Of a DNA stretch of 64,000 nt, positions 44,415-50,059 are shown in pieces. Under the pieces are notes generated by a model that was not told the DNA's origin, ran no database searches, and saw nothing but the letters and a program-made list of their open reading frames with translations. Position 1 is the first letter of the stretch. Every line of letters starts with the position of its first letter. The DNA is from an uncultured Gammaproteobacteria bacterium (lineage in GTDB: Bacteria; Pseudomonadota; Gammaproteobacteria; CAYGNG01), in assembly GCA_964351225.1 (NCBI GenBank), contig CAYGNG010000011.1, forward strand, positions 886 through 64,885, read 5' to 3'. The translations under genes were made by a program, and so were the position numbers.

Positions 44415-44579
44415 CGCGCCTATTTACAATTACTTTTTGGGGCTGCAAATGCCGCTCTCTTTGTCTCTCAGTCATCGTTTGATCTCGTCAAATAGGAGTC
44501 ACTATTCTCCTCGCTCAAACGATGATTGCGACAAATTATCGACATTTTCGCTCCGGAAAAGCAATTGTAAACAGACCCT
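44415..44579 (+). repeat. MITE-like element, full copy 1 (about 165 bp, about 27-bp TIRs)
   Basis: Near-identical to 49898-50059. The ends ...tatttacaattactttttgggg and gcaattgtaaacagaccct are imperfect inverted repeats of each other. Confidence 0.75.
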
Positions 44580-44711
44580 AATTAATCAAACAAAGTTTGG
44601 ATTTGGTGGTATAATATCTAGCACTTTATTACTGTTTTTTGTCATCGCATTTGTCTGGCTAAAAACAAATTTTTTACCAAGATAAAGACCTTGCACCAGC
44701 ATGTGGAGTAA

Positions 44712-47132
44712 ATGATGCCCGATCAAAATACAACGTACGATCAGTCGAATATTAAAGTATTAAAAGGGTTGGATGCTGTTCGAAAACGGCCCGGTATGTA
44801 TATTGGAGATACCGATGATGGGACCGGGCTACACCATTTGGTGTTCGAGGTGGTCGATAACTCGATCGACGAAGCGCTCGCCGGGTATTGTGATTCCATC
44901 TCGGTGACGATTCATATCGATGGCTCGGTTTCCGTCAAAGATAATGGCCGCGGGATCCCGGTTGATATCCATCAAGAAGAGAATCGTTCAGCAGCGGAAG
45001 TGATTATGACGACCTTGCACGCGGGTGGCAAATTCGATAACAACTCCTATAAAGTCTCCGGTGGTTTGCATGGGGTCGGGGTGTCGGTTGTTAATGCCCT
45101 ATCCGAAGAGTTTCATTTAACCATTCGCCGCAACGGCCAAGTACACTATCAAGAATACCGAATGGGCGATCCGGTTGTGCCATTGCGCGTGGTTGGCGAA
45201 ACCGAAGGGACAGGAACGGAGGCGCGTTTCAAGCCCAGCAAAGTTATTTTCAGTGATGTCGAATTCCATTATGAAATTTTGGCGAAGCGGTTGCGCGAGC
45301 TCTCCTTTTTAAACTCTGGCGTTCGAATTGAGCTGATGGATGAGCGTGATGGTAAGCACGATATCTTTGAGTATGAAGGGGGTATCCGTTCTTTTGTTCT
45401 CTTTCTCAATCAGAACAAAAACGCGATTGTGGAAGTTTTTCATTTTGTGTGTGAACGGTCGGATATGGTGGTCGAGGTGTCTTTACAATGGAATGACGGT
45501 TACCAAGAAAACATATATTGCTATACCAATAATATTCCTCAGAAAGATGGCGGCACCCATTTGGCGGGCTTCCGGGCGGCGCTGACCAGAACATTGAATA
45601 CCTACATTGAGAAAGAAGGCGTTGCTAAAAAGCATAAGTTAGCGGTTACCGGTGATGATTCTCGCGAAGGACTCACCGCTGTGCTATCCGTTAAAGTGCC
45701 CGATCCGAAATTTTCTTCTCAAACCAAAGATAAATTGGTTTCCTCAGAAGTGAAGGCGGTGGTGGAATCGGTGATGGCAGAGAAATTCCAAGAATATTTA
45801 TTGGAAAATCCATCGCAAGCGAAGTTAATTGTTTCTAAGATTATTGATGCCGCAAGAGCCAGGGAAGCGGCACGTAAAGCAAGAGAAATGACGCGTCGAA
45901 AAGGCGCATTAGATATCGCGGGCTTGCCAGGGAAATTGGCGGATTGCCAAGAAAAAGATCCGGCTTTATCCGAATTGTTCATCGTTGAGGGCGATTCCGC
46001 TGGCGGCTCAGCAAAGCAAGCACGCAGTCGGGCTTCGCAGGCTATTTTACCGCTGAAAGGCAAAATCTTAAATGTGGAAAAAGCGCGATTCGATAAAATG
46101 CTTGCTTCCCAAGAGGTCGGTACTTTAATTACGGCACTAGGGACCGGGATCGGAAAAGAAGAATATAATCCAGATAAAGTTCGTTACCATCGTATTATTA
46201 TTATGACGGACGCCGACGTCGATGGTTCGCATATTCGCACGTTGCTGCTAACGTTTTTCTATCGCCAAATGCCCGAGTTGATCGATCGCGGGTTCATTTA
46301 TATTGCGCAGCCGCCGTTATATAAGGTCTCTAAAGGCAAACAGGGGATCTATGTTAAAGACGATGAAGCGCTGGAAAAACATCTTCTTTCCTTAGGATTA
46401 GAAAATGCGGCGTTGTATCCAAGCCCGGATGCGCCGGGTATTTCCGGAGTGGCTTTTCAGGGATTGGTGGAAGAGTATCGAGGCGTTCGAAAAATCATTG
46501 AGAAGCACGCGCATCGATTCCCCCGGGAGGTTTTGCGACAATTAATTTATATGCCCCCAGTGACCATGGAAGTTCTTAACAATAAAGCATTGATGAAAAG
46601 CTGGGCCGCCGATTTGCAATTGTCTCTGGACAGATTAAATAGCACGGTGGAGCGGTATCAAATTTCGGTTCTAGATGATGTTGAGCGGCAATTGTATTGC
46701 CCCAGAGTGTATTTTACTTCGCACAGCGTGGAGACGATACATACCTTCAATAAAGACTTTTTCTTGTCGTCGGATTATCAGCTGTTGTTGAAAATGGGCG
46801 ATAAATTGCAGGGCTTGCTGGAGCCCGGTGCTTATGTGCGTCGCGGTGAAAAGCAAAAGAGTGTGGATCATTTCGCGCAAGTGATTAATTGGATTATGCA
46901 AGAAGCCAGACGGGGTCAGGATATCCAGCGTTACAAAGGGTTAGGGGAGATGAACCCTGATCAACTGTGGGAAACCACGATGGATCCGCAATCGCGCCGA
47001 ATGTTACAGGTCACTGTCGAAGACGCGGTGGCTGCCGATCAGTTATTTACCACACTGATGGGTGATCAGGTTGATCCGCGGCGCCAATTCATTGAAGAAA
47101 ACGCGCTGGATGCAACCAATATTGATGTTTGA
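44712..47132 (+). CDS. gyrB: DNA gyrase subunit B
   Basis: GHKL ATPase motifs, EGDSAGG TOPRIM motif, 806 aa. Confidence 0.97.
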
Positions 47133-47209
47133 TGGTGTTACTTGTTTCACTGCCGTCATGATCGCGTCATCGCGCCGAGCGCCACTTTCATCATGGCGAG
47201 AAGCGAAGT

Positions 47210-47247
47210 GACGCGGTAATCCAGCCCAAGGCATGGATTGCCGCGTC
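47210..47247. terminator. 13-bp stem hairpin between the convergent genes gyrB and the 2H phosphoesterase gene
   Basis: gacgcggtaatcc / ggattgccgcgtc (one mismatch) with a 12-nt loop. There is no U-tract, so it may be a REP-like element or a bidirectional terminator. Confidence 0.35.
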
Positions 47248-47311
47248 GCGCTGCGCACGCCTCGCAATGACAGAGAGGGCATTGCGTCCGCGCGCATAAA
47301 AACAACCGGCT

Positions 47312-48022: not shown

Positions 48023-48221
48023 ATGTTTTTTCCTTTTACAAAATTTACAAAAACGAAGTAACGCGGCGTATTCGTCGTGAATTTGTCCGCGCAATAGACA
48101 CTCAGGTTGTAAGCTCCGGGTTGAGCACGTGTGTGCCTTGAAAAGAGGAGTATATCTATTATGAACCAGGTTTGTTAGTATTTCTGTAATTATTTGCTTC
48201 ATTTTTATTACGGAGTGATGA

Positions 48222-48908
48222 ATGTCTCAATACGATTCGGATCCGCCAGAGACGCCTGATGAAGAAGTTAACGTTTGGTTGAATATCTGGAATGAGCCAA
48301 GCGCAGTCTTTGAAAAGTTAATGTATGAAATGAAGATAATGCCCATCTTTATTATTATCTTGTCCTATGGGTCGGCGTTGTACATCAATAAAATGTGCAA
48401 AGCCTTTTTTATTGAGATGAGTGGCGTGCCCGCTGCCGCGCTTAATGAAAGCGTGAATCAAATTGCCTTAGATGTTGCTCTAGCCAGCGCGGCTGGGTTT
48501 GGCGGTATGGTGGTGTTTACGTTGGTGGCTTCTGCGCTGGTAAAATTTATCTCTGGGCTGTTAGGGGGCGAGGCCTCCTATCAAAAAATCCATACAGTTG
48601 TCACCGTTTCTTATATTCCACAAATTTATTTGCTCTTATTTACGGCAATTTATTATTGTGTCGTTAGCGAGTTTACCAATGGCGCTGCCGTAGCGGCCGA
48701 TTTTTTATTACATCCGGAAAATATTTTTGGCCACTTTTTCCTATTAATGCTGTGGGTGGGGGTCGCTTTGTTTCGCTTTGTGGTGCTCTGCATCGGAATA
48801 ACGATTGCCAATGAGTTTAATAATAACCTATACGGCTTTATTACCATCGCGGGTGCGACCATGATTTCATGGATTGGTGTTTCTACGGTTGCGGTTTTGT
48901 TCCAATGA
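48222..48908 (+). CDS. Polytopic membrane protein, Yip1-like (paralog 1)
   Basis: Five hydrophobic helices. It shares the N-terminal motif W(L)NIW..P.AVFEK with the next gene. Confidence 0.55.
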   Translation: MSQYDSDPPETPDEEVNVWLNIWNEPSAVFEKLMYEMKIMPIFIIILSYGSALYINKMCKAFFIEMSGVPAAALNESVNQIALDVALASAAGFGGMVVFTLVASALVKFISGLLGGEASYQKIHTVVTVSYIPQIYLLLFTAIYYCVVSEFTNGAAVAADFLLHPENIFGHFFLLMLWVGVALFRFVVLCIGITIANEFNNNLYGFITIAGATMISWIGVSTVAVLFQ

Positions 48909-48963
48909 TACCAGGGGTGGTGGATTGCTTGTTTGCGAACAATAGATTAAGTTTTCCAAAGGG

Positions 48964-49740
48964 GTGCCGAAAAAAAGGAAATGGGGGAAGCAACCGGTAG
49001 CGGTTGTTTTAAAGCCAATGACGAGCAAGGAGGGGGATCCAATGGAGCCCGACAAATCGCAAACGGAAAAAAAATCTTGTTGTAATATGGTGTGCGCCAA
49101 AGAATGTAAGTGGCTGTCTATTTGGGTGAAGCCGCGCGCGGTATTTGAAAAAATAAATCAAGAAGGCAATTGGAAGCATTTTTGGAAAATCGCTTTGGTT
49201 TATTTGGTGGTGCTGTGTGTGTACACACTGTGTATGGCCCATTTCGGGAAAGCCGCGGATGGCGATCACGATAAATACCAAATGATGCTGGAGTCATTTT
49301 CTAGTATCGTTATGATAGCGATGGCCTTGCTCCTTTTCCTGGTAACCCTTGCGATGTGGACAATTAACGCAGCCTGTTTGATGATGACAGGGCGCTGGTT
49401 GGGTGGTCGTGCCAGCTATCTCAAAAATGCATTAGTGGTTGCGGTTAGCACCATCCCGTACGTCGAAATGATGTTGTTAGAAGCGCTGTTAGTAACACTT
49501 GCGACATGGCTTGGTGTTTCGGCCATTGTTGGGATGGTGAGTCTGTTTGCGTTTTTAGCAAACGTGTATGTGTTTGTTTTCACGATTGTTGCCATCTCCA
49601 AAGGGTTAGCCGTTATTAATGATTACCCCTCGGCTTGGCGCGGTTTCGGCAATTATTTGTTAGGGTTTGTTTTCTTTGCCTTGATTTTTATCGTGCTTGG
49701 CGTGATCAGCGCGATGATTATTCCTTCTTTTATTCACTAG
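48964..49740 (+). CDS. Polytopic membrane protein, Yip1-like (paralog 2). The start is uncertain.
   Basis: CKWLSIWVKPRAVFEKI is shared with paralog 1. Multiple transmembrane helices. Confidence 0.55.
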   Translation: MPKKRKWGKQPVAVVLKPMTSKEGDPMEPDKSQTEKKSCCNMVCAKECKWLSIWVKPRAVFEKINQEGNWKHFWKIALVYLVVLCVYTLCMAHFGKAADGDHDKYQMMLESFSSIVMIAMALLLFLVTLAMWTINAACLMMTGRWLGGRASYLKNALVVAVSTIPYVEMMLLEALLVTLATWLGVSAIVGMVSLFAFLANVYVFVFTIVAISKGLAVINDYPSAWRGFGNYLLGFVFFALIFIVLGVISAMIIPSFIH

Positions 49741-49897
49741 GGATTGGTTGACATTTGCAGCCGAAAAAGCAAGTGGCAACAGGCCCTCATCGTCTTGGAG
49801 TGGGTTTGCGTTTATAGCGCGAATCCACTTTCATTATGAGCCAGGCTTTGTTTTGAAAATAGACACACGGTGTTGCTTTTTTGTTATTGCGTTGTTA

Positions 49898-50059
49898 GGA
49901 TCTGTCTACAATTACTTTTTGGGGCTGCAAATGCCGCTCTCTTTGTCTCAATCATCGTTTGATCTCGTCAAATAGGAGTCACTATTCTCCTCGCGCAAAC
50001 GATGATTGCGACAACTTATCGACATTTTCGCTCCGAAAAAGCAATTGTAAACAGACCCT
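49898..50059 (+). repeat. MITE-like element, full copy 2
   Basis: aggatctgtctacaattactttttggggctgcaaatgccgctctctttgtc ... gcaattgtaaacagaccct. About 90% identical to copy 1. Confidence 0.75.

Follow-up and report, generated by a model that had tools for sequence, protein, structure and literature searches.

A family of hairpin-forming inverted-repeat elements, probably bacterial MITEs, in the replication-origin region of an uncultured gammaproteobacterium

The window analysed here, a 64-kb stretch of DNA from an uncultured member of the Gammaproteobacteria (CAYGNG01) whose positions serve as coordinates below, is a replication-origin region, its genes having been identified by Pfam and NCBIfam scans, and its cumulative GC skew turns near 36 kb. 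Besides its genes, this region contains a family of short repeats, with two full copies (named A and B) and at least four partial copies in 64 kb (Table 1). The full-size element measures approximately 163-165 bp and carries inverted ends of 22-27 bp, with the consensus (T)AGGGYCTGTTTACAATTGCTTTTT. We describe below the copies, their structure, their occurrence in a second genome and their position relative to genes, and we propose that they belong to the MITEs (miniature transposable elements with inverted repeats).

Copies were located with a nhmmer model, built from copies A and B and run on the window, and by scanning for element ends. The scan of the window, carried out with a 25-nt degenerate pattern, at most 3 mismatches and shuffled controls for the expectation, gave eight sites (20059, 22141, 44414, 44580 (-), 49788 (-), 49896, 50060 (-) and 63891 (-)) where 0.00 were expected. 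Copies A and B are identical at 153 of 165 aligned positions (92.7%, nhmmer E ~1e-60; 12 positions differ), in agreement with the value of about 90% given by an earlier sequence-only reading of this DNA, apart from the start of copy B, which is 49897 and not 49898. The 150-bp flanks of the two copies, on each side, share only the random level of 48-49% identity, so that the copies are not parts of a larger segmental duplication. Further members exist, with eight ends in the window and full and mini copies in another genome (see below). The two degraded copies which had been reported in addition to the full ones are real, but the inventory was incomplete, the mini-palindrome 49739-49787 and the solo end 63867-63891 having been missed. 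Indeed, the left-end fragment placed at 22142-22192 is a genuine member (E 1.6e-13) but slightly longer, reaching 22198, and the solo inverted repeat at 20060-20086 is upheld by its two mismatches to the 25-nt pattern. The possible remnant at 29146-29160 is a plausible 11-nt match, but was misplaced by about 7 positions. This 11-mer (TAGGGTCTGTT) has 5 matches in the window versus 0.01 expected, and no further similarity inward was seen in the end alignment. It may plausibly be a family end, too short to be sure.

Table 1. Members of the repeat family in the 64-kb window, followed by other features of the region
Feature	Position	Strand	Remarks
Full-length copy A	44415..44579	+	165 bp; nhmmer E 6e-62
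Full-length copy B	49897..50059	+	163 bp; nhmmer E 1.4e-60
Left-end fragment	22142..22198	+	57 nt, T at 22141 before; nhmmer (22141-22198) E 1.6e-13
Solo left-type end AGGGTCTGTGGCTAATTGCTTTTTCGGCTGCGAAT	20060..20094	+	T before; 2 mismatches to 25-nt end pattern, 0 expected; also in inverted-repeat pairs I2, I7, I8; weak nhmmer match 20059-20093
Mini-palindrome (two diverged ends, 9-10-nt loop)	49739..49787	.	49 bp; right arm 1 mismatch to end pattern; nhmmer (49747-49787) E 0.003-0.006
Solo end TAGGGCCTGTTGACATTTGCTTTTT	63867..63891	-	1 mismatch to end pattern, 0 expected; repeat family D3; weak nhmmer match at 63868-63891
Possible end remnant TAGGGTCTGTT	29153..29163 (or to 29166)	-	exact 11-mer, uncertain
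Second repeat family, end TTAGGACTTACRAYAAMCG	13027..13045	+
Second repeat family, end TTAGGACTTACRAYAAMCG	20152..20170	-	in 52-nt piece 20119-20170
Second repeat family, ~60-bp inverted-repeat element	40894..40953	+	TAGGACTTACG...CGCAAGTCCTA; between dnaA and dnaN
DOT1 histone methyltransferase-like domain	884..1585
Hybrid enzyme gene	14057..19123		1688 aa
GCCATC-type hexanucleotide repeat	~20000..20030
MFS transporter gene	27815..29071
Open reading frame	29305..30534
GDA1/CD39 nucleoside phosphatase	37687..38979
dnaA	39350
Rfam AsdA match	39887..39967	-	54.5 bits vs cut-off 52; inside dnaA
parS-type site	42548..42563		in recF coding sequence
parS-type site	43172..43187		in recF coding sequence
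Histidine kinase gene	43314..44324		336 aa; HisKA + HATPase_c
gyrB	44712..47132
Two tandem Yip1 membrane protein genes	48222..49740
Direct repeat, ~400 bp	50214..50616
AAA/ATPase_2 gene	50866..52308	-
Direct repeat, ~400 bp	52503..52902

The ends of the element are inverted, as had been read from the letters. In copy B, 23 of the 27 terminal positions (49897-49923 and 50033-50059) are reverse-complementary and the copy is bordered by a T (49896) and an A (50060). Copy A reaches only 20 of 27 because the outermost 8-10 nt of its left end have decayed, with CGCGCCTA in place of AGGGTCTG; its right end is intact (44553-44579) and is followed by an A at 44580. When 13 ends were aligned, homology set in sharply between a T and AGGGYCTGTT in 11 of them, preceded by unrelated sequence. 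The T before and the A after the AGGG...CCCT core, present at 11 of the 13 ends, fit either a TA duplication or a TA that is part of the end itself, and these borders are consistent with an insertion at TA.

The whole element is moreover an imperfect palindrome, showing 69-73% identity with its own reverse complement. On the plus strand, copy A folds into a hairpin of -55.1 kcal/mol (z -7.1) and copy B into one of -64.2 kcal/mol (z -10.1). Each full copy of the window thus folds as one hairpin, at -55 to -64 kcal/mol for the plus strand and at -72 to -83 kcal/mol for the minus strand, with z between -7 and -11, and copy B folded as single-stranded DNA gives z -7.8. The folding that the sequence-only reading had proposed as a check hence yields one long hairpin covering the element (z about -7 to -11), and a description as a ~27-bp terminal repeat plus unique interior understates this structure, which is a foldback hairpin over the full length. 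The mini-palindrome 49739-49787 folds weakly (z -1.1). Concerning coding capacity, the 163-165 bp hold no protein-size or conserved frame, in line with the earlier statement that the element is too small for a transposase: the sole frame open across copy A is interrupted in copy B by a 2-bp indel, and the peptides encoded by the element matched none of 5.8 billion proteins.

The family extends beyond this window. An exact end-pattern scan of 185,579 species-representative genomes, with a pattern that demanded GGGTCTG, returned one locus, located on a contig (L001) of another uncultured gammaproteobacterial metagenome-assembled genome (MAG), 41% GC. This contig carries a mini version, a 56-bp perfect palindrome composed of the two ends alone with a 25-bp stem (z -11.8), and, 600 bp upstream, a full-length copy of 163 bp (5431-5593) detected with the nhmmer model. 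This full copy and those of the window share about 64% identity. In the L001 copy, the outermost 19 bases (AGGGCCTGTTTACAATTGC) differ from the window right ends only by a C for T at position 5 (Y in the consensus), the 22-nt ends give 20 matches over a 23-column alignment, and the central motif ATAGnAnTnACTAT is conserved. It folds at -87 to -101 kcal/mol, with z -14.6 to -16.8. In the three-sequence alignment of copies A, B and L001, 14 of the 63 stem pairs are kept by two-sided changes, so that the hairpin was maintained during divergence while the ends stayed nearly unchanged. Nearly invariant ends associated with a diverged foldback body are the pattern that would be expected of a transposase-binding end. 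Because a diverged full copy and a mini version are present in an unrelated MAG, the family is not a local duplication.

The L001 copies adjoin parE and an amino-acid permease fragment. In L010, a Logan contig from a relative of L001 whose parE shares 86.5% DNA identity with that of L001, no element follows parE and the homology with L001 stops at 5430, the element boundary. Between the full element and the mini-palindrome of L001 lie three tandem-like repeats of ~16-20 nt (5690-5760; GTGACATCTGCTCATA / GTGACATCTACCCATA / GATGACATCTGCCCCC). The better minus-strand fold of all three full copies also led us to consider a strand-specific RNA function. This idea was rejected: transitions that leave a G-U pair in the minus strand versus the plus strand number 5:4, 5:2 and 3:2 in the three copies. 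Their sum, 13 versus 8 mismatches of which some have a common descent, reveals no real asymmetry, and minus-strand controls that had been shuffled likewise fold better than plus.

Other collections were searched as well. BLASTN against plasmids and phages gave no match to the element, two end-pattern scans of viral contigs gave 0 matches, and exact-pattern scans of JGI metagenomes gave 0 matches, then one chance match inside an open reading frame (ORF). The genome and metagenome patterns that require GGGTCTG miss the GGGCCTG variant and so undercount the family, this form being present in the L001 full copy and at two window ends (about half the family). No Rfam family reached its gathering threshold on the element, with only eukaryotic microRNA hairpin models far below threshold (19-32 bits vs cut-offs of 57-211). 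No second strain or other sample carrying the window organism is on record in the collections, and a literature search for the end sequence gave no match. The sequence family is previously undescribed; the kind of element, most likely a bacterial MITE, is common.

The locus was also recovered in an independent assembly of the same sample (Logan contig L002, run ERR3534985), which is identical to window positions 44550-49936, a span that starts within copy A and finishes within copy B. On the right, this contig stops at the final 31-mer found in copy B alone, before the k-mers common to copy A, so these contigs are broken where a repeat starts; such repeats split short-read assemblies, as illustrated by a contig that ends inside both copies. 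At the left end (44550), the first 31-mer finishes at 44580, one base beyond the last base of the element (44579), and the 31-mers starting at 44515-44549 are all unique within the window. Because this left break is unexplained by the window's own copies, another locus of the sample probably contains at least 31 nt of the copy A right end and diverges immediately after ...CCCT. The break may alternatively come from a gap in coverage or from a single-nucleotide polymorphism (SNP) between strains.

With respect to genes, both full copies had been described as lying directly downstream of plus-strand genes, which is roughly correct. Copy A is located between the histidine-kinase gene (stop 44324) and gyrB (start 44712) and begins 91 nt past the kinase stop, and copy B begins 157 nt past a Yip1 stop codon, with the mini-palindrome 49739-49787 in between. 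Several members are fused to gene ends. The TAG stop of the second Yip1 gene (49738-49740) is formed by the T and AG at the border of the mini-palindrome, and the TAG stop of the L001 parE (5430-5432) is formed in the same way by the element terminus. Read on the opposite strand, the left-end fragment provides rsmG/gidB with its final 13 codons (DCDKESGICSPKK) and with its TAA stop; the RsmG profile match of this gene stops at residue 207 of 230. The solo end 20060-20094 occupies the spacer between a 285-aa (amino acids) ORF and the convergent parB, where it adjoins a fragment (20119-20172) of a second repeat family, and the possible remnant lies in the spacer that separates the MFS transporter gene from the divergent ORF at 29305.

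This second family, recognised by its ends (3 matches vs 0.05 expected), includes a ~60-bp inverted-repeat element between dnaA and dnaN and a 52-nt piece that adjoins the solo end of the first family (Table 1). Ends of both families begin with T followed by AGG, and they may share a common transposase.

We propose, with a probability of about 0.72, that this non-coding, hairpin-forming repeat is a bacterial MITE, mobile in trans, because of its inverted ends, its long hairpin, its TA termini, its location between genes and the occurrence of truncated copies and of fusions with gene ends. The element is shorter than ~400 bp and without coding capacity of its own, it has terminal inverted repeats, and its copies are dispersed with unrelated flanks, all of which characterise MITEs; a related autonomous insertion sequence (IS) with matching ends, which also belongs to their definition, was not found in the sequences searched. 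From these features we infer transposition, a TA duplication and the type of transposase. An enzyme encoded elsewhere in the genome would bind both ends, and would have inserted the element at TA dinucleotides, most likely with a duplication of TA in the manner of IS630/Tc1-mariner-type enzymes. These enzymes, which insert at TA with TA duplication and whose inverted ends are ~20-30 bp long, are candidates for the mobilisation, and no gene for such a transposase, nor an IS with the present ends, was seen in the sequences searched. Since the element begins with GGG, a copy entering a TAA or TAG stop codon at its TA would restore a TAG stop, so that copies could abut gene ends harmlessly. Once inserted, copies would decay, leaving half elements, solo ends or mini-palindromes made of two ends. 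When transcribed together with the gene next to it, the ~75-bp hairpin would probably alter the termination or stability of transcripts, as a side effect and not as the reason for its existence.

Several observations weigh against this proposal. Two of the 13 ends lack the T, and direct repeats longer than TA were sought at the flanks of the copies without success; the TA may equally belong to the inverted end. The DNA downstream of parE in L010 is not homologous to that of L001, and no clean empty site is thus available. No transposase domain was found in the scanned ORFs of the window (Pfam and NCBIfam) and of L001, nor any longer element with the same ends in the sequences searched. The exact scans of genomes and JGI metagenomes, with a pattern that under-samples the family, gave only L001 and one chance match, the gyrB neighbourhoods of the closest relatives (GyrB 70-72% identical) contain no copy, and the copy count covers the 64-kb window and L001.

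The same hairpin could instead be a structured element that the host has selected for gene regulation: a hairpin RNA present in several copies, a terminator, or a hairpin that stabilises mRNA. It would owe its spread to recombination or duplication and not to a transposase. Its great stability, its preservation between the window and L001 through 14 compensatory changes on both sides of the stem and the location of copies at gene 3' ends speak for it, as would the minus-strand RNA, which folds 14-19 kcal/mol better in all three full copies, and a weak promoter-like TTTACA-16-GAAAAT in the right end, which in each window copy is directed into the element on the minus strand. However, the best conserved part is the terminal 19-25 nt and not the stem interior or the loop, as fits a transposase-binding end, and transposable elements typically decay into half copies, solo ends and mini-palindromes of ends alone. 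The hairpin is not followed by a T-run, the terminator scan made no call and Rfam gave no meaningful match; the strand asymmetry is lost when the transitions given above are counted, and the promoter-like site is only a 9/12 match of a kind found 10 times in the region versus 9.4 by chance. We consequently hold this explanation to be unlikely. Also unlikely is a further reading, in which the elements would be more than transposon relics: a family present across lineages, its hairpin preserved by selection (14 compensated pairs between two distant MAGs), would insert at the TA of stop codons, with restoration of TAG. It would serve intracellular Legionellales-like bacteria as portable gene-end modules, namely terminators, insulators, hairpins for mRNA stability or genes of antisense small RNAs, and might be moved by a kind of transposase that has so far not been connected with MITEs.

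Mobilisation of a REP/BIME-like palindrome by a tyrosine HUH transposase (RAYT, IS200/IS605-like), or an integron attC-like site, seems decidedly improbable to us. A long imperfect palindrome in short and long versions is indeed found in REP/BIME and in the small forms of the Coxiella QMITE2, and the intergenic, gene-end locations would suit it. Yet the present ends start with TAGGG and lack the GTAG/CGTC head which defines the REP super-families that PMC3733652 names in its title (just one fragment has a G before, by chance), the arms of 22-27 bp have a defined TA-flanked terminus as opposed to clustered 20-40-bp units, no GTTRRRY / RYYYAAC core sites were seen in the sequence, and no tnpA/RAYT, HUH domain or integrase gene was found in the window. 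A role as binding sites for chromosome-organisation proteins near the origin (parS-like, nucleoid-protein or DnaA-related) receives a very small probability. The window spans dnaA, parAB and gidAB, all copies are within ~25 kb of dnaA and adjoin parB, parA/rsmG and gyrB, the end's TGTTTAC loosely recalls a parS half-site and the interior TTATCGACA has 8/9 of a DnaA box; but canonical parS (TGTTCCACGTGGAACA) lies elsewhere, two sites being inside recF, perfect DnaA boxes are at 37698 and 39303, the L001 copies adjoin parE and the permease fragment and no origin genes, and the origin-proximal placement is forced by the choice of the window, so that no enrichment can be claimed. Least credible of all is that faulty assembly of a metagenome contig, or else a simple local duplication, produced the repeats, which the origin of the contig from a MAG and a separate ~400-bp direct repeat 150 bp downstream of copy B could suggest, given that the independent Logan assembly is identical over the span between the interiors of copies A and B, that the copies differ at 12 positions with unrelated flanks, and that the family recurs in a different MAG.

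Among known elements, the architecture is closest to the Correia/NEMIS elements, and it also resembles QMITE2 of Coxiella. Correia/NEMIS of Neisseria are MITEs of ~105-155 bp with inverted ends of ~24-26 bp, TA termini and TA duplication, which form a long whole-element hairpin, exist in full and shorter versions, lie at gene ends, are co-transcribed and have no known transposase partner (PMC2229807). The present element is comparable by its size, ends of ~25 bp, TA termini, long hairpin, gene-end sites and full and short forms, but belongs to a different host lineage and has no evident IHF site. Its ends are not known to be similar in sequence to the Correia end. QMITE2 of Coxiella burnetii measures 150-190 bp, has inverted ends and also exists as a small REP-like palindromic form; its copies overlap gene 3' ends by a few bases and are bordered by direct repeats of 7-11 nt of variable sequence (PMC5896051). 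Size, full and small palindromic forms, overlap with gene 3' ends and a Legionellales-related host are shared with the present family, which shows TA only, unlike QMITE2 with its 7-11-nt repeats. The exact end pattern matched no species-representative genome besides L001.

ERIC/IRU (RU-1) and RUP are, like the present element, small imperfect palindromes with TA termini, intergenic and capable of ORF fusions, but their contiguous inverted ends are of 7 and 9 bp (PMC2229807), much shorter than here, and their sequences are unrelated. YPAL/RU-2 of Yersinia (167-168 bp) is palindromic, intergenic and co-transcribed with upstream genes, and the present element has nearly the same length and the first two of these properties; the inverted repeats of YPAL are internal, its termini are without TA and its target duplications reach 3-26 bp (PMC2229807). 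YPAL/RU-2, considered on account of the 165-168-bp size and 46% GC, was rejected, the published 168-nt RU-2 sequence (PMC2759123) being unrelated and the host no enterobacterium. Regarding other transposase types, direct repeats of 5 bp are absent from the flanks of copy B and of the L001 copy. Tn3-derived miniature elements (TIMEs) have ends of ~38 bp starting with GGGG and a 5-bp target duplication, and the GGGTCTG of the end alone presumably resembles a Tn3 end. Ends of Tn3, ISAs1 or IS1595 type, with duplications of 5-10 bp, were rejected: no such duplications were seen, although the ends presumably resemble those of these families.

Under the MITE interpretation, the present data would add a well-delimited family (end consensus; full, half and mini forms) to a poorly sampled branch of uncultured Gammaproteobacteria. 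The gene-end fusions mean that the tail of rsmG and two stop codons come from the element, and copies could be used as strain-typing markers or as bait for the transposase. Biologically this is another case of a common phenomenon that raises no new question, with the stop-regenerating terminus (TA followed by GGG) as a small instructive detail.

Apart from the repeats, the window contains the atp operon, a gene for a hybrid polyketide synthase/nonribosomal peptide synthetase, parB, parA, rsmG (gidB), mnmG (gidA), mnmE, yidC and rnpA, then dnaA, dnaN, recF, the histidine kinase gene and gyrB. The host is an uncultured gammaproteobacterium, deep-branching and Legionellales-like, which is known from one sample only, because its GyrB has a 100% match in its own sample only and the next best match, in a Legionellales MAG, is 72% identical. 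Eukaryote-like domains are encoded (DOT1, GDA1/CD39 and two tandem Yip1 proteins; Table 1); by analogy with the effector repertoires typical of Legionellales-like bacteria, they would fit an intracellular lifestyle.

The ~400-bp direct repeat, which starts 150 bp past copy B, is near-perfect (2 SNPs and one small indel) and its two units flank a 1.9-kb low-GC segment (36%) carrying the AAA/ATPase_2 gene, which looks like an inserted or duplicated cassette. The histidine kinase upstream of copy A has no obvious sensor domain and its gene is an insertion that separates recF from gyrB, two genes that are direct neighbours in the examined relatives (L004-L009). The two parS-type sites are identical and perfectly palindromic; membership of the repeat family in parS was rejected, as this 16-bp palindrome (TGTTNCACGTGNAACA) occurs only at 42548 and 43172, inside recF, and not in the element. 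Within dnaA, the match to AsdA, the antisense RNA of the dnaA mRNA, may reflect merely the conservation of the dnaA sequence. Finally, the hybrid enzyme is organised in the order adenylation, ketosynthase, carrier protein and class-III aminotransferase, and its gene lies beside the origin region, upstream of that of the 285-aa protein, whose end consists of the hexanucleotide repeat.

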